From: Frankiaceae bacterium | GTDB taxonomy: Bacteria; Actinomycetota; Actinomycetes; BP-191 | Assembly: GCA_035556555.1 (NCBI GenBank) | Contig: DATMES010000022.1 | Coordinates: 7,577-71,576 of the forward strand | DNA length: 64,000 bases | Reading direction: 5' to 3' | Shown here: positions 2,021-60,526 of the stretch, piece by piece | How positions within the stretch are numbered: position 1 is the stretch's first letter | How the letters are laid out: each line of letters starts with the position of its first letter | Made by a program: the position numbers and the translations under genes | The notes under the pieces: generated by a model | What the model saw: only the letters and a program-made list of their open reading frames with translations | Databases searched by the model: none | What the model was told of the DNA's origin: nothing

Positions 2021-2153
2021 CCAGGGCGGCTCCCTCCCGTTCTGTGAAGATCAGCACGCTCAAGACCGGCGGCTGGGCTCCACAGAACGAGCGGTGGGGC
2101 CAGGCGCGGTAGCGTTCGGCAGTACCCCGCCGGACGTCTGAGAGGGACCCACC

Positions 2154-4901: not shown

Positions 4902-5704
4902 ACGACGTCCCCGTCCCGCAGTGGTGGGGCGTCGCGCTGGCGTCGTTGCTCGTCGCGGCCACTGGCGCGGTCATCGTGCGCGAACGCCTCGGCCTCGGTC
5001 GCGACGTGGTCGAGGCCGCCGTCCGCGCCGTCGTCCAGCTCGTCGTCGTCGGCTTCGTGCTGGTGTTCCTCTTCGAGCGCGCGGGCATCCCGGGCTCGCT
5101 CGGCTGGGTCGGCGGGATGGTGCTGCTCGCGGGTCGTACGGCGGGGCGGCGCGCCCGCGGCCTGCCCGGGGGCGTACGCGCCGCCACCGTCGGCATCGCC
5201 GTCGGCGTCGCCTGCACGCTCGGCCTCGTCGTCGGCGCGGGCGTCCTCGCCGCCGAGCCGCGCGTCGTCGTCCCCGTCGGCGGCATGGTCGTCAGCGCAG
5301 CCATGCAGGGCTGCTCGATCGTGCTGCAACGCGTCGCCGACGAGGTCGCGTCGTCGCGGCCGCTCGTCGAGGCGCGGCTGGCGCTCGGGCTGCCGGGGAC
5401 GGCGGCGTTCGCGCCGCACCGGCGCCTCGCGCTGCGCGCGTCGCTCGCGCCGGCCATCGACCAGACCAAGGTCGTCGGGCTCATCGCGCTGCCCGGCACC
5501 ATGACCGGCCTCATCATCGCGGGCGTCTCGCCGCTTACCGCGATCCGCTACCAGATCGTCGTGCAGTACATGTGGCTCGGCGCCGCCGCGATCTCCGGGC
5601 TGGTCGCCGCGCGGCTCGCGTCGCGGACCGTCTTCGACGACGCGCACCGCCTCCGCCCCCTCGTTACGGCGCGCCGCCGGAAAACTGTCACACCCCGCCC
5701 CTAA
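4898..5704 (+). CDS. ABC transporter permease, FetB/YbbM (UPF0014) family
   Basis: GTG overlaps ATPase stop (GTGA); about 268 aa polytopic membrane protein with the YbbM-like GLIALPGTMTG motif. Confidence 0.75.
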   Translation: MNDVPVPQWWGVALASLLVAATGAVIVRERLGLGRDVVEAAVRAVVQLVVVGFVLVFLFERAGIPGSLGWVGGMVLLAGRTAGRRARGLPGGVRAATVGIAVGVACTLGLVVGAGVLAAEPRVVVPVGGMVVSAAMQGCSIVLQRVADEVASSRPLVEARLALGLPGTAAFAPHRRLALRASLAPAIDQTKVVGLIALPGTMTGLIIAGVSPLTAIRYQIVVQYMWLGAAAISGLVAARLASRTVFDDAHRLRPLVTARRRKTVTPRP

Positions 5705-5715
5705 CGTCCCTCCCT

Positions 5716-7599
5716 ATGGAGCGGACCGGGGGACTGCCGTACGTCCCCGCCCTGGACGGCGTGCGCGGCGTGGCCGTGCTCGCCGTGCTGCTGTTCCACG
5801 GCGGCGTCTCGTGGCTGCCCGGCGGCTTCCTCGGGGTGGACGCGTTCTTCGTGCTGTCGGGGTACCTCATCACTGGGTTGCTCCTCGCGGGCGTGCCGCT
5901 CCGGACCTTCTGGTCCCGGCGCGTGCGGCGGCTGCTGCCTGCCCTCGCCTTGCTCGTGCTCGTCGTCCTGTGTCTCGGCTCCGTGCTCAACGCCGCACCC
6001 CGCGACGCGCTGGGCGCCTTGACCTACCTCTCCAACTGGCGGTCGTACGCCACCGGCGGCGGCTACTTCGCGTCGTTCGCCGATCCGTCGGCGTTCAAGC
6101 ACACGTGGTCGCTGGCCGTGGAGGCGCAGTTCTACGTCGTCTGGCCGCTCCTCGTGGTCTGCGTCTGCCGCCGCGCGCGCGGGCCCGTGCTCGCGGCTGC
6201 AGGCGTGGGGGCGCTCGTGTCGGCGGCGGCGATGGCGGCGTCGTTCCGGCCCGGCGGCGACCCCGCGCGGGCCTACTACGGCACCGACACCCGCATCCAG
6301 GCCCTCCTCGTCGGCGCCGCGCTGGCCGTCGTGCTCGCGCGCGCAGCGGTGCCCCGCGCGATCGGCTGGTCGGGCCTCGCGGGCGTGGGGCTGACGCTGT
6401 GGGTCTGGCACACCGCGTCCGGCACCTCCGACGACCTCTACGGCGGCGGCTTCCTGCTAGCGGCCGTCGCCACCGCGGCCGTCATCGCCTCGGTCGTGCT
6501 GCTGCCGTCCGGGCCGCTGGCCCGCGCGCTGTCCGTACGCCCCCTGCGCGCGGTCGGCATCGTGTCGTATGGCGTCTACCTCTGGCACTGGCCGGTGTTC
6601 CTGCTGCTCACCGGCGCGCGCACCGGCCTGAGCGGCTTCTGGCTCCTCGCGCTGCGGTTCGCGGCGACCGCCGCCTGCACCGCCGTCTCCTGGTACGCCG
6701 TCGAGGTCCCCGCCCGCACCTGGTCGCCCCGGCTGCCGCCGCTGCACGTACGGCGGGTGGCGCTGGCGGGCGGCACGGCGTTCGCGCTGGCGGCGTTCCT
6801 CGCGCTGTCGCCCGGCACGCCGCCGGGCCCGCCATCCGCGGCGGCTGACCCGCTACCCACGGCGTCACCCACGGCCGCGCGGCGCCCCGCCCGGGCGCCC
6901 ACGACGACCGCGCCGACGACACCCGCGCCCACCCGGGCCGCCGGCGGGCCGACGCGGGTGCTGGTCCTCGGCGACTCGGTGGCGCAGACGCTCGCGGCCG
7001 GGCTGCCCGACGGCGACGGGTTCGACGTCGTCAACGCCGCCGCCCTCGGCTGCGGCCTCGTCACCGGCGGGTACCGCTACTTCGGCGGCCAGTACGACGA
7101 CCCGCCGCACTGCGTCCAGTGGCCGCAGACCTGGGGCGCGGCCGTGGCACGGCACCAGCCGGACCTCGTCGCGGTGCTCGTCGGCCGGTGGGAGGTCATG
7201 GACCGCCGCCTCGACGGGGAGTGGCGGCGGCTGGGGGACGCGGCGTTCGACGCGTACGTCACCGCCCAGCTCGACCGCGCCGTCGACGTGGTCTCCGCCG
7301 GCGGCACCAAGGTCGCGCTGGTCACGGCGCCGTACTACCTCCGCGGCGAACGCCCCGACGGCGGCCGCTTCCCCGAGGACGACCCCGCCCGCGTCGACCG
7401 CTTCAACGCCCTGCTCCGCGACGTCGCGGCGAGACGCGGCGTCGCCGTTGTGGAGCTCGGGGCGGCGCTCGCGCCGGAGGGGACGTTCACGCGGCACATC
7501 AACGGCACCCTCGTCCGCTACGACGGCGTCCACATCAGCGGCGCCGGCGCGCGCATGCTGCGCCCCTGGCTCCTCCGCCAGCTCACCGCCGCCCTCTGA
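5716..7599 (+). CDS. Acyltransferase-3 (OafA/OatA-like) membrane domain fused to a C-terminal SGNH hydrolase domain
   Basis: N-terminal 10-TM acyltransferase-3 region (FHGGVSWLPGGFLGVDAFFVLSGYLIT); Pro/Thr linker; SGNH block VLVLGDSVA. Confidence 0.85.
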   Translation: MERTGGLPYVPALDGVRGVAVLAVLLFHGGVSWLPGGFLGVDAFFVLSGYLITGLLLAGVPLRTFWSRRVRRLLPALALLVLVVLCLGSVLNAAPRDALGALTYLSNWRSYATGGGYFASFADPSAFKHTWSLAVEAQFYVVWPLLVVCVCRRARGPVLAAAGVGALVSAAAMAASFRPGGDPARAYYGTDTRIQALLVGAALAVVLARAAVPRAIGWSGLAGVGLTLWVWHTASGTSDDLYGGGFLLAAVATAAVIASVVLLPSGPLARALSVRPLRAVGIVSYGVYLWHWPVFLLLTGARTGLSGFWLLALRFAATAACTAVSWYAVEVPARTWSPRLPPLHVRRVALAGGTAFALAAFLALSPGTPPGPPSAAADPLPTASPTAARRPARAPTTTAPTTPAPTRAAGGPTRVLVLGDSVAQTLAAGLPDGDGFDVVNAAALGCGLVTGGYRYFGGQYDDPPHCVQWPQTWGAAVARHQPDLVAVLVGRWEVMDRRLDGEWRRLGDAAFDAYVTAQLDRAVDVVSAGGTKVALVTAPYYLRGERPDGGRFPEDDPARVDRFNALLRDVAARRGVAVVELGAALAPEGTFTRHINGTLVRYDGVHISGAGARMLRPWLLRQLTAAL

Positions 7600-41242: not shown

Positions 41243-41329
41243 GGGGCCTGTGGACGGCGGTCTCGGCGCCGTCCACAGATTGCGCCCGGCTGGTGGTCTC
41301 CGGGCTCGCGCGTCCCTAGCGTCGTACGG

Positions 41330-41770
41330 GTGGGACAGCCAGCCGGCCTCGACGTCGTCGAGGGGACCGTACGCCGCGAGCTCGACGCGCAGGAACGCCG
41401 CGTCGACGCGGCGGACTCCCACGCGCGCCTCGTCATGGCGACCGCCGGCGTCTTCGTGACCCTGGCCGACGGCGGCTGGCTACCGCTGCTGCTGACGTCG
41501 CGGCTGATGGCGGGGCTCGCCGCACTGGCGGCGTTGGTGGCCCTCGCACCCAGTACGCGCGCGGCATTCGACGCGCGCGTACTGGGCGGGTACCTCGACG
41601 CCGACCCGGCCGACGTGCGTCTGGAGCTGCTGGCCGGCGACATCCGGGCGTCCGACCGCCTGGAGGCGCGTCTGACGGTCAAGGTGGCGCGTCTGCGCCT
41701 CGCGTCCAGGCTGATCATGGCGTCGGTGGCGTTCGCCACGCTCGCCGCTATCGTCGACGGTGTGACGTGA
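41330..41770 (+). CDS. Small membrane protein (146 aa; 2-3 TM after an N-terminal helical segment)
   Basis: GTG start; hydrophobic helices; no recognisable domain. Confidence 0.4.
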   Translation: MGQPAGLDVVEGTVRRELDAQERRVDAADSHARLVMATAGVFVTLADGGWLPLLLTSRLMAGLAALAALVALAPSTRAAFDARVLGGYLDADPADVRLELLAGDIRASDRLEARLTVKVARLRLASRLIMASVAFATLAAIVDGVT

Positions 41771-51903: not shown

Positions 51904-52203
51904 TCAGGCCCCGAGCATCCGCGCCTCGACGGCGAGGTACTCGGCGGCGGCGCGCTCGTACAGCGCCTCGAAGTCCGGTCCGAGCCGATGCGCGCGCCGC
52001 CCGAACCGCAGGCGTACGACGCTCCCGCAGAGCAGCCGCGCCAGCCGCCACGGCACGCCCGGGTCGAAGTGGTCGGCCTCGTCCACGAAGACCACGACCT
52101 CGGCGCCGCGCGGCACGTCCACCACCGCGAGGTCGACGTCCCACTCGGTCAGCAGCCCGTCGCCGCGTACCGGGTCGAGGCGGACCTCGTACTCGGCGCT
52201 CAC
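51904..52203 (-). CDS. Hypothetical protein (about 100 aa) located immediately downstream of dnaB
   Basis: GTGA overlap with the dnaB stop; high GC3. Confidence 0.45.
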   Translation of the reverse strand: MSAEYEVRLDPVRGDGLLTEWDVDLAVVDVPRGAEVVVFVDEADHFDPGVPWRLARLLCGSVVRLRFGRRAHRLGPDFEALYERAAAEYLAVEARMLGA

Positions 52204-54791
52204 CCTGCGGGAGTCATGTCGATGAAGCGGGAGTAGTGGCCCTGGAACGCCACCGTGATCGTGCCCGTGGGGCCGTTGCGGTGCTTGGCGACGATGAAGT
52301 CGGCCTCGCCGGCGCGGGGCGACTCCTTCTCGAACGCATCCTCGCGGTACAGCAGGATCACCATGTCGGCGTCCTGCTCCAGCGAGCCCGACTCGCGCAG
52401 GTCGGACAGCTGCGGCTTCTTGTCGGTGCGGGACTCGGGGCCGCGGTTCAGCTGGCTGATCGCGACGACGGGGACCTCGAGCTCCTTGGCCAGCAGCTTC
52501 ATGGACCGGGAGATCTCGGAGACCTCCTGCTGTCGGTTCTCGACCTTGCGCGGCGAGCTCATGAGCTGCATGTAGTCGACGACGATCAGCTCGAGGTTCT
52601 GCCGCTGCTTGAGCCGCCGCGCCTTGGCGCGGATCTCCATCATCGTGAGGTTGGGGCTGTCGTCGATGAACAGCGGCGCGTTGGCGACCTCGCCCATCCG
52701 GCGCGCCAGCCGCGACCAGTCGTCGTCGGTCATGCGGCCGGTGCGCATGTTCTGCAGCGAGACCCGCGCCTCGGCGGAGAGCAGGCGCATGGTGATCTCG
52801 TGCTTGCTCATTTCGAGCGAGAAGATCACTGAGGTCTTGCCTGCCTTGATCGACGCCGCGCGGGAGAAGTCGAGCCCCAGCGTGGAGTTGTGCGTCGGGA
52901 TCATCGAACGCGTCGCGAGGTAGAGGTGCTCGTCGTTGCCGACCTCGACGCAACGCACGGGAACGCTCGGGATCGGTCGCACCGCGACGATGAGCCGCGA
53001 CCGGTTGCGCGCGTCGCCCTTGGCGCCGCGCCGGTCCTTGTGCACGAGCCGCTTGCGCTCCAGGCGGAACACGTCGTCGGAGGTCGTGAAGTTGAGGATG
53101 TACGCGATCGACGACTCCGGCGTACGGCCCCGCACGGCCTTGGTACACACCGAGACGCGATAGCCGAGGCTGGTGACGAGCTCGCGGACGTCCTCGGCCA
53201 GCCGGCGCGACGTGACGCAGAACTGCAGCTGCCCCCTCGGCGTCACGGTGCCGTCAGTGTCCATGAGCCCGGCGAGCAGCGCGCGCCGCTGTGCCTCCGA
53301 CGCGCGGAGGTACGCGGCCGGGATGTGCTTGGCACCGAGGACGCCGAGCGTGCGCAGGATGCCCTGCACGGTGCCGTGCGCGTCGTGGCACTCCTGGCAG
53401 CGCAGCAGACCGGTGGACGGACGGCCGCAGTCGGGGCAGGTCGGCGCGGGGACGGGAGCGGACACGAAGCGGGCACGGCCGCCGCAGGACTGCCCGCAGG
53501 TGCGGACGTGGGCGAGCGGGTTGACGAACTCGGTGCCGCAGACGGCGCAGGCGCGCGGCGCGGGCGGCGGCGGCTCGGGGAGCCGGATCGTGAACGTCAG
53601 GCCGTTCGACGCGCTCGGAACGACGCGGTATCCCTCGTCCTCCAGGTACAGCACCATCTCCGGATCGGCCGTCGTGATGCGCGCGGCGGCGGAGTGGCCG
53701 TCGCCGAGCCAGGCACCGAGGACGTACGGCGACAGGGGCAGGACGGCGGCGGGCAGGTCGAGCGGGGCGGCGTTGGGGACGGAGTGGTTGAGGCGCCGGT
53801 CCGCCGTCTCGCAGCGCAGGGTCGCGGCGATCTCCGCCGTGGTCCTGACCGAAGCCACAGCACGGCCGCTCGACCGTCGTGACGCGCGGGTGTCGGTGAG
53901 CCACTGGTGCTCGGCGTCGGCGACGACGACGGTGCCGTCGGCGAACTCCACCTCGTAGCACGACCGATCGGTCATGACCTCGGTCGCCGCGACGACGGGC
54001 GTCGGACGGCCCGAACGGTCGAGCAGCAGGTCGCCGACCGCGACCTCGCCCATCGTCGTCCACCCCGTGGGCGTGGGCAGCGGGGTGTCGAGCGCCAGCG
54101 CCTTGCCGATGGCGGGACGCGCGGCGACGATGACGAGCTGGCCGGGGTGGAGGCCGTTGGTCAGGGCGTCGAGGTCCTTGAAGCCCGTGGGAACGCCGTG
54201 CAGGTCGCCGTCGCGGGAACCGATCGCCTCGATCTCGTCCAGCGTCGGCTGCAGCAGGTCCTCGAGGCGGATGTAGTCCTCGGACGTACGCCGCTCGGTG
54301 ACGTCGAAGATCGCCTGCTGCGCCCGGTCGACGATGTCGTCGACCTCGCCGCCGCGGCCGCCGTAGCCGAGCTGGACGATCCGGGTGCCGGCCTCGACGA
54401 GGCGGCGCAGGATCGCCTGCTCGGCGACGATCTTGGCGTAGTAGCCGGCGCTGGCGGCGGTGGGGACGGCGGACGCGAGGTCGATGAGGTACGTCGCCCC
54501 GCCGATCCGCCCGATCTCCCCCGTGCGGGTGAGCTCGGCGGCGACGGTGATCTGGTCGACGGGCTCGCCGCGGCCGTAGAGGTCGACGGCGGCCTCGTAG
54601 ATGACCTGGTGCGCGGGCCGGTAGAAGTCGCCGGGGCGGAGCACCTCGACGACGTCGGCGATGGCGTCCTTGGACAGCAGCATCCCGCCGAGCACGCTCT
54701 GCTCGGCCTCGATGTTCTGCGGCGGCGTGCGGTCGAACTCACGATGCTCGACGGGCGGCGCTGCGCGCTGCGGGAACTCGACTGCGGTCAC
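52200..54791 (-). CDS. dnaB: Replicative DNA helicase DnaB, interrupted by an intein in the Walker A motif
   Basis: N-terminus aligns with actinobacterial DnaB (QNIEAEQSVLGGMLLSKDAIADV); Walker A is split as AARPAIGK|[intein]|STLGLDF. Confidence 0.9.
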   Translation of the reverse strand: MTAVEFPQRAAPPVEHREFDRTPPQNIEAEQSVLGGMLLSKDAIADVVEVLRPGDFYRPAHQVIYEAAVDLYGRGEPVDQITVAAELTRTGEIGRIGGATYLIDLASAVPTAASAGYYAKIVAEQAILRRLVEAGTRIVQLGYGGRGGEVDDIVDRAQQAIFDVTERRTSEDYIRLEDLLQPTLDEIEAIGSRDGDLHGVPTGFKDLDALTNGLHPGQLVIVAARPAIGKALALDTPLPTPTGWTTMGEVAVGDLLLDRSGRPTPVVAATEVMTDRSCYEVEFADGTVVVADAEHQWLTDTRASRRSSGRAVASVRTTAEIAATLRCETADRRLNHSVPNAAPLDLPAAVLPLSPYVLGAWLGDGHSAAARITTADPEMVLYLEDEGYRVVPSASNGLTFTIRLPEPPPPAPRACAVCGTEFVNPLAHVRTCGQSCGGRARFVSAPVPAPTCPDCGRPSTGLLRCQECHDAHGTVQGILRTLGVLGAKHIPAAYLRASEAQRRALLAGLMDTDGTVTPRGQLQFCVTSRRLAEDVRELVTSLGYRVSVCTKAVRGRTPESSIAYILNFTTSDDVFRLERKRLVHKDRRGAKGDARNRSRLIVAVRPIPSVPVRCVEVGNDEHLYLATRSMIPTHNSTLGLDFSRAASIKAGKTSVIFSLEMSKHEITMRLLSAEARVSLQNMRTGRMTDDDWSRLARRMGEVANAPLFIDDSPNLTMMEIRAKARRLKQRQNLELIVVDYMQLMSSPRKVENRQQEVSEISRSMKLLAKELEVPVVAISQLNRGPESRTDKKPQLSDLRESGSLEQDADMVILLYREDAFEKESPRAGEADFIVAKHRNGPTGTITVAFQGHYSRFIDMTPAG
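52887..54101 (-). mobile_element. DnaB P-loop intein, class 3-like (N-terminal Ala, internal Trp and Cys, C-terminal THN) with a LAGLIDADG homing endonuclease domain and a Cys-rich insert
   Basis: Begins ALALDTP and ends SMIPTHN, followed by extein Ser; LGAWLGDGH and LLAGLMDTDG motifs; block F VRCVEV; boundaries are approximate. Confidence 0.8.
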
Positions 54792-55197
54792 TCGGGCGGA
54801 TCCGTTTCGGGTGGGTGAGCCGAGCATCGGAGGGGGGTGTGACAGAAAGTTATCCACAGGTAGTGAACAGGCTGTGGATGGGGGCTCGGGGCCAAAGGGG
54901 ACGCTAGGCGACCAGCCGACGCGACGTAACCCACGCACCCGAACCCGCCCTGTGCACAGCCGGTGAACGTCGCGGCGTGGCGTTGTGGACGGGCTGGGGA
55001 CGAACGCGGGGAACGACCGCCGCTGAGCACGAATCCGTCCACACGGGGTGTGCGCAAAGAAACGTGCGGGGTGTGTGGAACGCCGGTCGCGCACTCGCGC
55101 GTGTCGCCTTACCTAACGCGCCTCACCCGGTGCGGAGACGCCGAACGGCCCGGTGCCGCGCGGGCGCGGGCCGGGCCGTTCGGTGGATAACCAACTG
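54792..55197. promoter_or_regulatory. rplI-dnaB intergenic region with a cluster of DnaA-box-like 9-mers and the dnaB 5' leader
   Basis: TTATCCACA (54850-54858), TGTGGATGG, TTGTGGACG, CGTCCACAC, GTGGATAAC (55183-55191), plus the palindrome TGTGCACA. Confidence 0.4.
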
Positions 55198-55644
55198 CTA
55201 CTGCGCGACTACCTCGATGGAGATGGTCGCGTCGACCTCGGGGTGGACCTTGACGGTCACCGAGTGGGTGCCGAGCGCCTTGATGGGCGCGTTGAGCACG
55301 ACGCGGCGCTTGTCGAGCTTCGGCCCGCCGGCGCGGGTCACCGCCTCGACGACGTCGCCGGCGGTCACCGAGCCGAACAGCCGGCCTCCCTCGCCGGCGC
55401 GGGCCGGCAGGGTGACGGTCAGCGCGCCGAGCTCGGAGGCCATCGTCTTGGCCGAGCCGAGGTCACGGACCTCGCGCACCTCGCGAGCGCGGCGGATCGC
55501 CGCGATCTGCTTCTCGGCGCCCTTGGTCGCGAGCATCGCCTTGCCCTGCGGGAGCAGGTAGTTGCGGCCGAACCCGTCCGCGACCTCGACCATGTCGCCG
55601 GGGCCACCGAGGCCGGTGACCTCCTGCTTGAGGATGAGCTTCAT
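55198..55644 (-). CDS. rplI: 50S ribosomal protein L9
   Basis: [13 protein letters not shown]; colinear L9. Confidence 0.95.
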
Positions 55645-55653
55645 CGCCGCCCC

Positions 55654-55890
55654 CTACCGCGCGGTGCTGGTGTAGGGCAGCAGCGCCATCTCACGGCTGT
55701 TCTTGACGGCCGTGGCGACGTCGCGCTGGTGCTGCGAGCAGTTGCCGCTGACGCGGCGGGCGCGGATCTTGCCGCGGTCGGAGATGAACTTCCGCAGCAG
55801 GCCCGTGTCCTTGTAGTCGACGTAGGTGATCTTGTCCTTGCAGAAGACGCAGACCTTCTTCTTCGGCTTCCGCGCCGGAGGCTTAGCCAT
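55654..55890 (-). CDS. rpsR: 30S ribosomal protein S18
   Basis: 78 aa; [10 protein letters not shown]...[20 protein letters not shown]. Confidence 0.9.
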
Positions 55891-55924
55891 GTCTTTAGGG
55901 TCTCTTTCGTGTTCGGGGAAGTAG

Positions 55925-56401
55925 CTAGAAAGGGGGCTCGTCGGTCGCCGCGCCCACCCGCGCGGGAGCCGGGCTGCCCCACGGGTCGTCCGCGGGAGCG
56001 CCGCCGCCGAAGCCGCCGCCGCCACCCGCGCCGGAGCGCTGGACCTTGTTGACCTTGGCGGTGGCGTACTTGAGGGAGGGGCCGATCTCGTCGACCTCGA
56101 CCTCGTAGACCGTGCGCTTCTCGCCTTCCTTGGTCTCGTACGACCGCTGCTTGAGCCGCCCGGAGACGATGACGCGCGCGCCGCGGGTGAGCGACTCGGC
56201 GACGTTCTCCGCCGCCTGGCGCCAGATCGAGCAGCGCAGGAACAGCGCGTCGCCGTCCTTCCACTCGTTGGTCGTCTTGTCGAGGAACCGCGGGGTGGAC
56301 GCGACGGTGAAGTTGGCGACGGCCGCGCCGTTCGGCGTGTACCGCAGCTCGGGGTCGTCGGTGAGGTTGCCGATGATCGTGATGGTCGTGTCGCCTGCCA
56401 T
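55925..56401 (-). CDS. ssb: Single-stranded DNA-binding protein
   Basis: OB fold ([27 protein letters not shown]); Gly-rich tail ending DEPPF. Confidence 0.95.
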
Positions 56402-56486
56402 GTGCGTTCGCCCTTCCGCGAGCGGGACTGACTACGGGTGACTGCCGCGGGCGCGGGAGCCGGTGTGGGGAAGGGAGGTGCCGGTC

Positions 56487-56777
56487 CTAGTGCATGTCCG
56501 GACGCAGGACCTTGGTGCGCATGACGGCCTCGGAGAGGTTGAGCTGACGGTCCAGCTCCTTCACCGTGGCGGGTTCGGCAACGAGGTCGACGACCGCGTA
56601 GATGCCTTCCCAGCGCTTCTGGATCTCGTACGACAGCCGGCGGCGACCCCAGATGTCGACCTTCTCGACCGTGCCGCCGCCGTCACGGATGACGCCGAGG
56701 AACTGGTCGAGCTGCGGTCCTACCGACTTCTCTTCGAGGTCGGGGTTCAGGATCACCATGAGCTCGTAGTGACGCAT
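56487..56777 (-). CDS. rpsF: 30S ribosomal protein S6
   Basis: [16 protein letters not shown]; colinear S6. Confidence 0.95.
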
Positions 56778-56921
56778 GGAAGTGCCTCACCTCCTGTGGG
56801 CTAGGCGGCCACGGTCTCTCCGTGGCAGGAGGGCATTCGCGTCAACGAATCCACGGAACGGTAGCAGACCACCTCCACCCGCTCGAACCGGACTCCCTTG
56901 CTTCCCTGCCCGACACGCTAG

Positions 56922-56988
56922 GACGGGGGTGTGACAGAAACGAGGGGGCGGCGCGGATCTGTGGACGGCGCGCCGACGATCTGTGGAC
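56922..56988. promoter_or_regulatory. rpsF-operon upstream region with the 16-mer GGGGGTGTGACAGAAA and two direct GATCTGTGGAC (DnaA-box-like) repeats
   Basis: Exact 16-mer also found at 54833-54848; direct repeats at 56955-56965 and 56978-56988. Confidence 0.4.
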
Positions 56989-57113
56989 AGCCGCGCGGCT
57001 AGTGGCGCTCCGGGCGGCGGTGGTCGTTCTGTGCAGCCGGTACGCCGGTCTCGAGCGTGTTGATCTTCACAGAACGGGCAGCGGGCGCGGCGGGGCAGGG
57101 ATGCACCCCGCGG

Positions 57114-57863
57114 CTACGGCGACGGCGGGGCGCTGGCGAGCAGCGCGCGCAGCTCGGCCGAGCCGACGCCGCCGATGAGCAGCAGCGCGAGCATGACCGG
57201 CAGGCCCTTCTCGCGGCCGGTGGCCGGCTGCGGCGTCAGCCCGCCCGCCCCGAGGAACGTCTCCTTCGGCGTCTCGGGGTCCGGCGCGACGCTGGGCAGC
57301 AGCGGCGTCGAGGTCGCCGACGGCGGCGCCACGGAGCCGCTGGGGATGGCCGGGGACGCGGTGCCCGAGGACGGGGTCGGCGACGGCGTCTCCGACACGG
57401 TCTCCGACGGGCGCGGCGAGGAGGTCGCGGTCCGCGTGGTCGTCGGGCGCGGCGACGACGTCCTGGTCTTCGTCGGCGACGGCTTGACCGTCCCCTCGAC
57501 GATGACGGTGCCCTTCATGCCGACGTCCTCGTGCGTGGTGCAGACGTAGCGGTACGTCCCCGCGCGCGAGAACGTCGCCTCCGTCGTGAAGTTCAGCAGC
57601 GCGGGCGGGCCGACGGGGTCGCTCTTGTCCCAGTTGGCGCTGGACGACGTGACGTTGTGACCCGAGCCACCGGCGTACTGCCACGTCACGGTGTCGCCGG
57701 GCTTGATGCGCACGGTCGCGGGGGTGAAGCGGTTCTCGTTGTTCTGGCCGACCGCGACCGTCTGGTCCTCCGCGGTGGCCGGCGTCATGAACGCGGGCAC
57801 GACGAGGAACGCCGACGCGCCGAGGGCGGCGACGGCGCGCAGGACGCGGAACGCGGGGCGCAC
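57114..57863 (-). CDS. Secreted/membrane-anchored cupredoxin (type-1 blue copper) protein with a PT-rich linker and C-terminal TM anchor
   Basis: Signal peptide; copper ligands GHNV...YVCTTHEDVGM (His, Cys, His, Met). Confidence 0.7.
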   Translation of the reverse strand: MRPAFRVLRAVAALGASAFLVVPAFMTPATAEDQTVAVGQNNENRFTPATVRIKPGDTVTWQYAGGSGHNVTSSSANWDKSDPVGPPALLNFTTEATFSRAGTYRYVCTTHEDVGMKGTVIVEGTVKPSPTKTRTSSPRPTTTRTATSSPRPSETVSETPSPTPSSGTASPAIPSGSVAPPSATSTPLLPSVAPDPETPKETFLGAGGLTPQPATGREKGLPVMLALLLIGGVGSAELRALLASAPPSP

Positions 57864-57919
57864 CGATCCAGTGTCGCACCCGGGCTGGCAGGGTGTCCGC
57901 CCAAGGCGTACAAACCTGG

Positions 57920-59426
57920 CATGGCCGAGAACGCGCGCGAGCTCCGCATGCTCATCGACGGCGAGCTGACCGGCGCCGCCGACGGGCGGACGTACGAGTC
58001 GATCAACCCGTCCACCGGCGAGGTCTCCTGCGTCGTCCCCGACGCGGGCACGGAGGACGTCGAGCGCGCGCTCGCGGCGGCGCGGAAGGCGTTCGACACG
58101 AGCGACTGGGCCACGCAGGGGCGGGAGAGCCGCGTCCGCACGGTGAAGGCGTTCGTCGAGGGGATCACCGCGCGGCTGCCGGAGTTCATCGAGTACGAGG
58201 TCGCCGACGCCGGCCACACGAGCCGCCTGGCCAACCTCTTCACGGTGCCGCTCGCGGTGGAGCACAGCAGGCAGGCGATAGAGCTGTACGAGCAGCGCCG
58301 CGACGTCGAGCCGCTGCCGCAGATCACGACGCCGGCGCTGTCGGCCAACTACGTCCGCCGCGAGCCGGTCGGCGTCTGCTCGCTCATCAGCCCGTTCAAC
58401 TTCCCGATCCTCATCGCGATGTGGAAGGTCGCGCCGGCGCTGGTCACCGGCTGCACGGCCGTGCTCAAGCCGAGCCCGCTGACGCCGGCGACGGCGCTGC
58501 TGCTCGGCGAGGTCGCGGCCGAGCTGCTGCCGCCCGGCGTCCTCAACGTCGTCACGCCGAGCGGCATCGGCCCCGCGGAGGTGCTGACGACGAGCCCGCT
58601 GCCGGACAAGGTGTCGTTCACCGGGTCGACCGACACAGGGCGAAGGATCATGCGCGGCGCGGCGGACACGTTGAAGGACCTGACGCTGGAGCTCGGCGGC
58701 AAGGGGCCGGCGATCTTCCTCGACGACGTGGACCTCGAGGCGGCGGTGCCGGGGGCGCTGTTCGGCTTCCTCATGCACCAGGGGCAGGCCTGCGAGTCCA
58801 CGACGCGGCTGCTCGTGCCGCGACGCCGGTACGACGAGACGCTCGAGGCGCTGAAGGCCGCGACGGAGGCGCTCGTGGTCGGGCCGGCCGACGACTTCGG
58901 GTCCGACCTCGGGCCGCTCATCTCCGCGGGCCAGCTCGACCGCGTGCAGCGGTACGTCAAGCTCGGCCTCGACCAGGGCGCGCGCCTGCTCACGGGCGGC
59001 GAGCCGATCGAGATCGGCGGCGGGTTCTTCCACCAGCCGACGATCTTCGCGGACGCCACCAACGACATGACGATCGCCCAGGAGGAGATCTTCGGGCCCG
59101 TGCTGACGGTGATCCCGTACGACACCGAGGGCGAGGCCGTCGCGATCGCCAACGACACCGTCTTCGGCCTGTCGGCGTCGGTCTGGTCGCGCGACGTGCC
59201 GCGCGCGGCGGGCGTCGCGCACCGCGTCCGCGCCGGCACCGTCTGGATCAACGACGTGCACCTGCTCAACGGGTACGCGCCGTTCGGCGGCTACAAGCAG
59301 TCCGGCGTCGGCCGCGAGCTCGGCCCGCAGGTGCTGGACGCGTACCTCGAGACGAAGCACGTGCACGTCGACCTGTCGCCGTCGCTGGCGCAGAAGTACT
59401 GGTACGGCACCATCGGGCTCGGCTAG
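57920..59426 (+). CDS. NAD(P)-dependent aldehyde dehydrogenase
   Basis: ALDH Glu and Cys active-site motifs: LELGGKGP and FLMHQGQACESTTR. Confidence 0.9.
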
Positions 59427-60526
59427 TCCACGACCACCTTGTGGGTCTCGGTGGCCCACTGGCGGTCCTCGCCGTCGCAGCCTGTCGAGGAGAAGGTCAG
59501 CGTGACCGTGCGCGCGCCCGCCGAGGCGTACTCGTGCGCCGCCTCGTCGGCGAACCTCGTGTTGGGGTAGCGCGCGCCGTCGCCGTCGTCGCACTCGCGG
59601 CTCCCGCGGAACCGCTCGGGCTCGGAGCCGTCGCCCCAGTCGACGAGGACGGACGAGACGTAGCCGTCGGTGTCGCGCAGCGTCCACTCCAGCGTGACCG
59701 TCCGGTAGAACTCGTCGTCGCCATAGAGGTGGCCGACGTGGTCGGCGAACGGCGAGGCGGGGCCGTTGGAGACGACCTTGCCCGGGCGGATCTCGATGGG
59801 AAGGCGGACCGTCTGGCGCTCCTGCTCGACGCCCTCGTCGCAGTAGTCAAACGAGACGACGGTGACGAGCACGGTGTACGTCCCCGGGTTGCGCCAGGCG
59901 TGGGTGAACGACTCGCGCAGCGACCCTGGGTCCTTCTCGTCGGGGCCGTCGGACGGCACGCAGGAGCCGCCGGCGCTGACGGCGCCCTTGGGCTCGCCCT
60001 CGCCCCAGTCGATCACCGGCATCGCGGGCTGGCCGTCGTCGTCCTCGGCCTCGACGGTGAGCGTCACCGACGTCGCCGTGGGCGCGCCGCCCTTCGCCAG
60101 CGTCGCGACGACGCGCAGGCCGCTCTCGCCACCGGCCGACCCGGTGACTGGGCCGGGGTCGGTCGGTGACGGCGTCGCCGGCGGCGCGGTCGTGGCCGTC
60201 GGCTGGTCGCTCGGCGGCGGCGCGCCGGTCCGGGTCGAGTACGGCGTCGGGACGCTCGTCGGGCTCGTGGTCGGCACCAGCTCCTCGGACGGCGTCGCGC
60301 TGGGCGTGTCGACGGCGAGGACGCCGACGGTGCTCTTGTCGCCGCGGTCGAGCGTCGCGACGCCGGTGCCGGCGATCGCGGCGGCGAGGACAGCCGTACC
60401 CGCGATCATCGTCTGGCGGGCACGCTGCCTGCGGGCCATCCGCGCCCCGAGACCAGCGCGCGGGTCGAGGTCGGGCGTGGCCGCGGCGTACGCGGACAGG
60501 GCGCGGCGGACGTCGTCGTCACTCAT
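59423..60526 (-). CDS. ECF-sigma-associated membrane protein with extracytoplasmic PKD-like repeats (putative anti-sigma factor)
   Basis: 8-nt overlap with the upstream ECF sigma stop; short cytoplasmic N-terminus, one TM, PT linker; IDWGEGEP and VDWGDGSEP PKD-like motifs. Confidence 0.6.
   Translation of the reverse strand: MSDDDVRRALSAYAAATPDLDPRAGLGARMARRQRARQTMIAGTAVLAAAIAGTGVATLDRGDKSTVGVLAVDTPSATPSEELVPTTSPTSVPTPYSTRTGAPPPSDQPTATTAPPATPSPTDPGPVTGSAGGESGLRVVATLAKGGAPTATSVTLTVEAEDDDGQPAMPVIDWGEGEPKGAVSAGGSCVPSDGPDEKDPGSLRESFTHAWRNPGTYTVLVTVVSFDYCDEGVEQERQTVRLPIEIRPGKVVSNGPASPFADHVGHLYGDDEFYRTVTLEWTLRDTDGYVSSVLVDWGDGSEPERFRGSRECDDGDGARYPNTRFADEAAHEYASAGARTVTLTFSSTGCDGEDRQWATETHKVVVD

Follow-up and report, generated by a model that had tools for sequence, protein, structure and literature searches.

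An identical 16-mer before dnaB and the rpsF operon of a Frankiaceae-type actinomycete as a probable part of two PafBC-type DNA damage promoters

Why should the gene of the replicative helicase, dnaB, and the ribosomal protein operon rpsF-ssb-rpsR-rplI of an uncultured Frankiaceae-type actinomycete be preceded by the same 16 nucleotides? Both transcription units lie on the minus strand of a 64,000-nucleotide (64-kb) stretch of contig DATMES010000022.1, here called the window, in which the 16-mer GGGGGTGTGACAGAAA occurs exactly at 54833-54848 and at 56925-56940. Each copy lies between genes and has the sequence TTTCTGTCACACCCCC on the minus strand, which is the coding strand of the downstream genes, and no third match was found in the window with up to three mismatches allowed. 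We consider it probable that the 16-mer is the upstream half (approximately -32 to -17) of two LexA/RecA-independent DNA damage promoters of the PafBC type. The two promoters would most likely be a new instance of a known promoter class, with a TGTCACACC variant of its -26 element, and no new system. The motif of this uncultured organism is thereby given a concrete proposed mechanism.

The exactness of the repeat is by itself weak evidence, because the window (72% G+C) holds 73 groups of exact repeats of at least 16 bases, nearly all of them G+C-rich coding sequence. The pair is non-random in other respects: its composition (A or T at 7 of the 16 bases), its intergenic position, its shared orientation and its continuation. 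The 16-mer is followed by CTCC-GATGCT at dnaB and by GTCC-TAGCGT at rpsF, so that the likeness of the copies runs on, at the same spacing, into a -10-like hexamer (xTCC[G/T]AnnnT). The full spacing units are ACCCCCCTCC-GATGCT and ACCCCCGTCC-TAGCGT, respectively, and the coding-strand form common to both is TTTC-TGTCAC-N10-[T/G]AnnnT. Past the 16 nt and the promoter positions, the flanks have no similarity. A literature search by sequence strings returned unrelated primer matches only.

At dnaB (52200-54791, 863 residues), the -26 element TGTCAC, with the GTC triplet inside, lies at 54839-54844 and the -10-like hexamer GATGCT exactly 10 nt past it, at 54823-54828; the proximal transcription start is predicted near 54815-54817. 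At rpsF (56487-56777, ATG at 56777-56775), TGTCAC lies at 56931-56936 and the -10 hexamer TAGCGT at 56915-56920, with a predicted distal start near 56907-56909; ssb (55925-56401), rpsR and rplI (55198-55644) follow in the operon on the same strand. The two copies of the 16-mer would thus occupy about -32 to -17 of a proximal dnaB promoter (copy A) and a distal rpsF promoter (copy B). The sequences 17 nt upstream of each -10, ACTTTC at dnaB and CGTTTC at rpsF, provide no -35, and a consensus scan of 54700-57150 found neither a sigma-70-type -35/-10 pair nor a terminator. A reading as promoters of an extracytoplasmic function sigma factor (GGAAC-like -35 plus CGT) was rejected, as the window has TTTC rather than GAAAC and the 10-nt spacing is too short for any -35/-10 pair.

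This anatomy is that of the RecA-NDp promoters, which are served by the activator PafBC. The in vivo PafBC motif, tGTCgg(N10)tA(N3)T, comprises a -26 element (-23 to -28) and a sigma-A -10 with no -35, and its lower-case letters, including the first -10 base, stand for conservation of at most 50% (PMC8635444). Residues R46 and R50 of PafB read only the two GTC guanines, a triplet that is almost invariant across actinobacteria (PMC8635444). As in the known PafBC promoters (Gamulin 2004; Muller 2018, 2021), both window promoters have GTC at about -26, within a TGTCNN hexamer at approximately -28 to -23, a 10-nt spacing, a -10 related to tAnnnT, no -35, and genes of the damage regulon downstream. 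Another shared trait is that elements of this type stand beside, or are exchanged for, LexA SOS boxes. In Mycobacterium tuberculosis, ssb is induced without RecA and is regulated by PafBC; PafBC also accounts for part of the regulation of dnaB, for which a putative SOS box is known (PMC8151990). RecA-NDp promoters are not confined to mycobacteria, and Actinobacteria, Frankia among them, have pafBC together with the Pup-proteasome locus (PMC8223512). There are differences, however. The RecA-NDp hexamer has GG at positions 5-6, where all sites of this type in the window have AC, which we would take as a variant position and not as disqualifying. The window element is an extended TGTCACACC(CC) instead of TGTCGG(TG). 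Furthermore, the rpsF promoter lies far upstream of a ribosomal protein operon (leader of ~ 130 nt), such that S6, S18 and L9 would be co-induced with SSB.

Orthologous loci were compared in two sets. The distant set consists of 80 actinomycete loci fetched by RplI (best 74% identical), whereas the close set, drawn from many RpsF relatives that are 98-80% identical, comprises eight Frankiaceae-type metagenome-assembled genomes (MAGs; L201-L203 and L205-L209, RpsF 98-86% identical) that form a clade of nine with the window. The 16/16 identity is peculiar to the window genome, with the nearest relative, L201, having 14/16. In the 80 distant loci the 16-mer as such finds a best match with 3-4 mismatches; only a search by motif geometry is informative there.

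At rpsF, the promoter TGTC[AG][CG] + N10 + TAG(C/G/T)(G/T)T is kept in all nine clade members. The hexamer forms a series at this one orthologous place, from TGTCAC (window, L201, L202, L205, L207 and L208) through TGTCGC (L203 and L206) to TGTCGG (L209). Most of the clade also keeps TTyC-TGTC-r-CACC, while the 3' part of the spacer drifts. Three distant loci have the element at -142 to -168 relative to rpsF (-159 in the window), as TGTCGG in L003 (at -167) and L011 and as TGTCGC in L002. Before dnaB, the promoter is of the TGTC type in the window, L201 (TGTCCC), L203, L205 (TGTCGG) and L207. The hexamers of these four relatives are TGTCAC, TGTCCC or TGTCGG, and the second and sixth bases of the -10, A and T, are kept in them (GATGCT, CACCCT, GATCCT, GACCGT). 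No orthologous site of this type in the clade has lost the GTC triplet. Further afield, the canonical TGTCGG(N10)[TG]ANNNT precedes dnaB in ~ 20 of 64 actinomycete loci (22 by the looser TGTC[AG] pattern), at a density of 0.71 per kb compared with 0.020 per kb elsewhere; the L003 site lies at -51 (-53 in the window).

An earlier note on this DNA, made from its letters alone, had taken the 16-mer as part of a shared module, pointing to a common regulator, upstream of two operons linked through ssb and dnaB. The two positions given there for the 16-mer are exact, the conserved core and the fixed -10 spacing support a shared module, a promoter position is consistent with the anatomy in both cases, and the link between the operons stands. 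The note had also offered an unknown factor or a small repeated element. The factor need not be unknown, since the 16-mer and its continuation match the PafBC / RecA-NDp class in their GTC, in the 10-nt spacing and in the hexamer at -10. A small repeated element accords poorly with flanks that share nothing beyond the promoter and with orthologous promoters that drift yet keep TGTC and the -10.

The four remaining relatives (L202, L206, L208 and L209) lack the dnaB element and have a perfect SOS box, TCGAAC-N4-GTTCGA, instead (CGAAC-N4-GTTCG in L209), beside a -10 of TACACT, TAGTAT or TAGGAT. The LexA SOS box of actinobacteria reportedly has this same consensus in the 2002 work of Davis and colleagues. 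In these four close relatives the SOS box controls dnaB from the promoter-proximal place that the TGTC element has in the window, but it works by release of repression, whereas the window sites have no SOS box and their proposed mode is activation. Because each clade member has either a PafBC-type element or an SOS box before dnaB, the clade appears to keep this gene under DNA damage control by either pathway. Judged by these motifs, dnaB has undergone clear regulatory turnover between two DNA damage pathways within one clade, with the output preserved.

Evidence for the TGTCACACC variant as a damage promoter also comes from a single metagenome scan with the extended core CTGTCACACCCCNNNCCKANNNT as the query, which yielded more than 119 sites. 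K is T in 66 of 75 distinct sites, and in 36 of 80 a long open reading frame (ORF) begins no more than 10 nt from the -10, indicating leaderless transcripts. The genes downstream encode RecA (3), RadA-like proteins (3-4), SbcD-like phosphoesterases (3), DUF222/HNH proteins (3), DNA methylases (2), RmuC, a PolA-type 5'-3' exonuclease and an AddB/Cas4-like nuclease. One of the RecA proteins (L161) is from Ilumatobacteraceae, class Acidimicrobiia, and in a named Ilumatobacteraceae MAG recA is preceded by SOS boxes plus TGTCACACCCCTTTCG-TATGGT, similar to mycobacterial recA with its RecA-independent and LexA-dependent promoters (P1 and P2). The recA and repair genes downstream therefore point to the TGTCACACC variant as a damage promoter of several Actinomycetota lineages, and the TGTCACACC(CC) form is often encountered as -26 element in environmental Actinomycetota, Ilumatobacteraceae recA included. 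A metagenome ORF resembling a WYL regulator (L099) had no Pfam or NCBIfam match. On the metagenome contig Ga0315334_10000264 (L144; 62% G+C), 5 kb contain eight TGTCACAC...-N-TACACT promoters, and behind each of them come a TACATAC-like stretch and small ORFs. It resembles a phage or another mobile element that has adopted the damage-response promoter of its host.

If the mechanism of the mycobacterial system carries over, DNA damage would expose single-stranded DNA, which would activate the WYL-domain heterodimer PafBC (PMC11804915). PafBC would then slot between region 4 of sigma-A and the DNA, with the helix-turn-helix of PafB reading GTC at -26 and PafC contacting region 4. Housekeeping RNA polymerase could thereby start ~ 7 nt past the -10 of promoters that are otherwise silent. 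The expected outcome is a larger supply of SSB, together with S6, S18 and L9, and of the DnaB helicase, serving repair and the restart of replication. Well outside mycobacteria, the LexA-independent damage response would thus seem to extend to the replicative helicase and to an ssb-containing ribosomal operon. None of these results overturns current understanding.

PafBC-type promoters are silent without their activator (PMC8635444), and second promoters at both genes fit that expectation. Judged from conservation only, both dnaB and rpsF appear to have one of housekeeping type. For dnaB it would be TTACGT-17 nt-TAGCGT at 54901-54929 (minus strand), where TAGCGTC is kept in L201-L208. For rpsF it would be an extended -10, TGCTACCGT, at 56858-56866 (minus strand), which sits between the damage-type promoter and a leader hairpin and where a TGnTAnnnT-like sequence is kept in close and distant relatives.

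Several points weigh against PafBC-type promoters here. First, the GG of TGTCGG is described as 'highly conserved' in M. smegmatis (PMC8682763), and the window has AC. Second, the dnaB -10, GATGCT, is weak, its first base being G and not T. Third, gene callers place the dnaB start in the window and in L201 at an in-frame ATG (54825-54827) that falls inside the proposed -10. The GTG at 54789-54791 (minus strand) is favored as the start codon because L203, L205 and L207 have no such ATG; they keep a GAAGGGA-like Shine-Dalgarno sequence before the GTG. Fourth, the element precedes rpsF in only the closest three of the distant relatives (L002, L003 and L011). Fifth, a search covering the 64-kb window alone found no pafB or pafC (WYL/FERD-type ORF). 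Sixth, the transcription starts and the induction, like the identity of the binding protein, are deduced from the sequence of an uncultured organism.

The two remaining points concern a third site. The pattern TGTCAC-N10-[TG]ANNNT was found three times in the window, against 0.27 expected, and the third match, aaaaCTGTCACACCCCGCCCC-TAACGT, lies at 5686-5707 on the plus strand, 8 nt before an ATG (5716); with other extents it is written TGTCACACCCCGCCCC-TAACGT or CTGTCACACCCCGCCCC-TAACGT. It precedes an acyltransferase_3/SGNH gene (5716-7599, plus strand) and no repair gene. In addition, the 12 bases common to the three window sites, CTGTCACACCCC, are longer than a regulator reading only GTC should need, which makes a paralogous or additional factor possible. 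As an observation on this site, its transcript would be nearly leaderless, and a cell-envelope enzyme is unexpected in a damage regulon.

The shared 12 bases lead to the rival that survives best, namely that TGTCACACC(CC) is read by another activator, a paralogous WYL-type or other protein acting at -26 on a longer site, with a damage or stress regulon of its own that includes rpsF-ssb and dnaB. In its favor, 12 of 18 further TGTCNN(N10)TANNNT sites on contigs seeded with the element have AC, whereas 35 of 49 in the relatives' loci have GG, and WYL activators besides PafBC do act at -26, for example SiwR (PMC10693628). The SiwR site, however, is a 19-bp palindrome with GGA at -26, unlike the window element (PMC10693628). 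The same orthologous rpsF promoter grades from TGTCAC through TGTCGC to TGTCGG within the clade, and L205 combines two of these forms in one genome, TGTCAC before rpsF and TGTCGG before dnaB, which argues for a single regulator. The metagenome regulon (recA, radA and nucleases) is that of PafBC, and Ilumatobacteraceae recA joins the element with SOS boxes just as mycobacterial recA joins P1 and P2. We therefore regard a separate activator as rather unlikely. A related idea, that there are two lineage-specific flavors of the element with their own regulators, is weakened by L205, as well as by the series AC, GC, GG seen at a single orthologous position.

PafBC-type promoters would leave a second feature of both regions to be explained, the sites containing TCCACAG. 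Before dnaB, the inverted ATCCACAG/CTGTGGAT pair described in the earlier note is present at 54850-54881, a 32-bp block that abuts copy A. The block holds two inverted DnaA-box-like sites, TTATCCACA (54850-54858, plus strand) and CCATCCACA (54873-54881, minus strand), and a degenerate middle site, CTGTTCAC; as rTCCACAGsCTGTTCA-N5-yTGTGnAyAA it is kept in 8 of the 9 clade members. The rplI-dnaB spacer contains further DnaA-box-like sites, CCGTCCACA, at 54984-54992 (minus strand) and 55035-55043 (plus strand). Before rpsF, the two direct GTCCACAGATC sites that the note had reported are there on the minus strand, at 56956-56966 and 56978-56988, although the first is not at 56955-56965 and the spacing is 22 bp rather than 23 bp. 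The proximal GTCCACAGATC ends 19 nt upstream of the rpsF TGTC, and an GTCCACAGAT box lies 18-20 nt upstream of it in L201, L202, L203, L205 and L003.

That these sites are DnaA-box-like and conserved, as the note suggested, is borne out by motif match, enrichment and conservation in the clade. The boxes TTATCCACA, CTGTCCACA, CCGTCCACA (three copies) and CCATCCACA are at most two mismatches from TTGTCCACA or TTATCCACA, which are the DnaA boxes of Mycobacterium and Streptomyces and of Escherichia coli, respectively (PMC4285127). RTCCACA occurs 10 times in the window, six of them in the two regions discussed here, and over the 80 actinomycete loci plus the window its density is 5.5 per kb before dnaB, 1.9 per kb before rpsF and 0.19 per kb elsewhere, a 10- to 29-fold enrichment before these genes. 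DnaA-box-like sites are thus conserved before dnaB and rpsF across Actinomycetes. By their sequence, the GTCCACAG sites are most likely DnaA boxes that would couple both operons to replication status. Like DnaA boxes, they occur as pairs with short spacing and are maintained upstream of replication genes; unlike in DnaA boxes, C often takes the place of the first two T, and the following G (CACAG) is conserved. In Caulobacter, DnaA boxes are predicted upstream of dnaB, and its expression pattern places dnaB in the DnaA regulon (PMC8203912). For Actinobacteria, our literature search turned up no account of dnaB or rpsF being controlled by DnaA. A perfect inverted pair, CTGTGGACGGCG-N7-CGCCGTCCACAG, at 41247-41279 (plus strand) includes two further GTCCACAG sites, of which one has the form GCCGTCCACAGAT known from rpsF. 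It lies just past a small secreted-protein ORF and ~ 35 nt before a TAGCGT and the GTG of ORF 41330-41770; the pair could be a terminator-like hairpin or another site of the same factor.

Boxes and promoter occur independently, so the boxes form a layer of their own that is specific to these genes and does not belong to the promoter type: among 78 further promoters of the class, just 1 has a box within 100 nt, and L206 has the box block ~ 90 nt from its LexA-type promoter with no 16-mer-like element. Both layers might nevertheless work together at these two operons. The extended TGTCACACC element occurs widely in Acidimicrobiia as well as in this Frankiaceae-type clade, and the boxes abut it at dnaB and lie 18-20 nt upstream of it at rpsF. 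One could then imagine a composite, found only at the two operons, in which DnaA over the -35 region gates PafBC by blocking or assisting it, SSB and DnaB supply integrates initiation status with damage, and the extended TGTCACACC reflects a co-evolved regulator specificity beyond GTC. We offer this joint reading tentatively and hold it to be unlikely as a whole.

A stricter version, in which DnaA or another TCCACAG-box factor also needs the 16-mer and the whole composite is one DnaA-dependent module, could draw on the adjacency of the boxes (19 nt upstream at rpsF), on the conserved 18-20 nt spacing and on the box enrichment. The 16-mer, however, is unlike TTGTCCACA and is not a DnaA site, contrary to what the earlier note had considered, and neither the rarity of boxes near other promoters of the class nor the L206 block agrees with a single module, which is therefore very unlikely.

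We give equally little weight to the 16-mer as a site of MtrA, a mycobacterial response regulator with links to replication genes. In M. tuberculosis, the sites bound by MtrA include oriC and the promoter of dnaA (PMC4285127; PMC2945938), and its recognition sequence GTCACAgcg shares with the 16-mer both the link to replication genes and the core GTCACA. MtrA sites, however, are usually direct repeats, whereas the 16-mer holds a single copy followed by CCC rather than GCG. In relatives, the change of A to G (GTCGCA, GTCGGA) breaks GTCACA and keeps GTC. Finally, an MtrA site has no fixed relation to a -10, and MtrA would explain neither that spacing nor the repair genes downstream in metagenomes.

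Still less probable is a chance repeat or the functionless remnant of a small dispersed or mobile repeat. The 73 exact-repeat groups show that such identity arises in this window, and a true dispersed repeat of 57 nt lies in the same rpsF spacer. Against this stand the A/T-rich composition of the 16-mer, its same orientation before genes, its only two copies, both at gene starts, the identical -10 spacing and the dissimilar flanks. The core is kept while the spacer drifts in 8 of 8 relatives, a conservation pattern that largely refutes this explanation.

WhiA/WhiB2 (GACACGCC), finally, is the least probable common regulator. Its joint control of just this pair of transcription units is documented for M. 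tuberculosis, where WhiA binding activates both the dnaB promoter and the rpsF promoter (PMC13473873), and a WhiA-like GACACGCG motif at 55098-55105 is conserved in the clade. This candidate site, however, is ~ 250 bp further upstream of dnaB, and the WhiA motif GACAC(GCC) differs from the 16-mer, which has no GACAC on either strand. Near the rpsF promoter, the sole sequence resembling GACAC (complement of TAGCGTGTCGGG) has disappeared in L202-L206.

The surroundings of the two promoters hold several other conserved features. Before the rpsF gene, the leader at 56790-56833 (minus strand) contains an anti-Shine-Dalgarno hairpin, CCCTCCTGCCACGG...CCGTGG...CAGGAGG, which close and distant relatives alike have kept and which probably serves S6:S18 autoregulation. 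Rfam gave no family at gathering score in the whole window and none at E<=1 in 54700-57150, the rpsF leader included, and a search for tRNA and tmRNA found none. In the rplI-dnaB spacer, a block TTTCTTTGCGCACACCCCGTGTGGACGG at 55035-55062 (minus strand) has a counterpart, tttcTTT(T/C)GTGCACAC...TTTCCGCAGGTCAG, before dnaB in many distant actinomycetes. Upstream of rpsF, an 857-codon open frame (57114-59687, minus strand) is over-extended, its last ~ 245 codons matching a cupredoxin / copper-binding protein; a cupredoxin gene precedes rpsF in 7 of the 8 close relatives, L203 being the exception.

The 57-nt repeat is an imperfect palindromic intergenic sequence, CCCGTTCTGTGAAGATCAnCACGCTCnAGACCGGCG....GGCTnCACAGAACGA, with copies at 2036-2092 (plus strand) and 57022-57078 (minus strand) that are ~ 85% identical. 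One lies upstream of a dodecin gene and the other between the cupredoxin gene and the rpsF promoter region. As a structured RNA it was rejected, as it has no Rfam match and its hairpin is no better than those of shuffled sequences (z = -1.4). L203 has two diverged copies, at 5605 (minus strand) and 11679 (plus strand), in other intergenic places and with the outer stem changed from G-C to U-G.

The DnaB protein of the window holds a LAGLIDADG intein. Among the relatives, DnaB is intein-free with 454-459 residues in L202, L205, L207 and L208 and has one intein in others, while the 1289-residue DnaB of L203 probably contains two.

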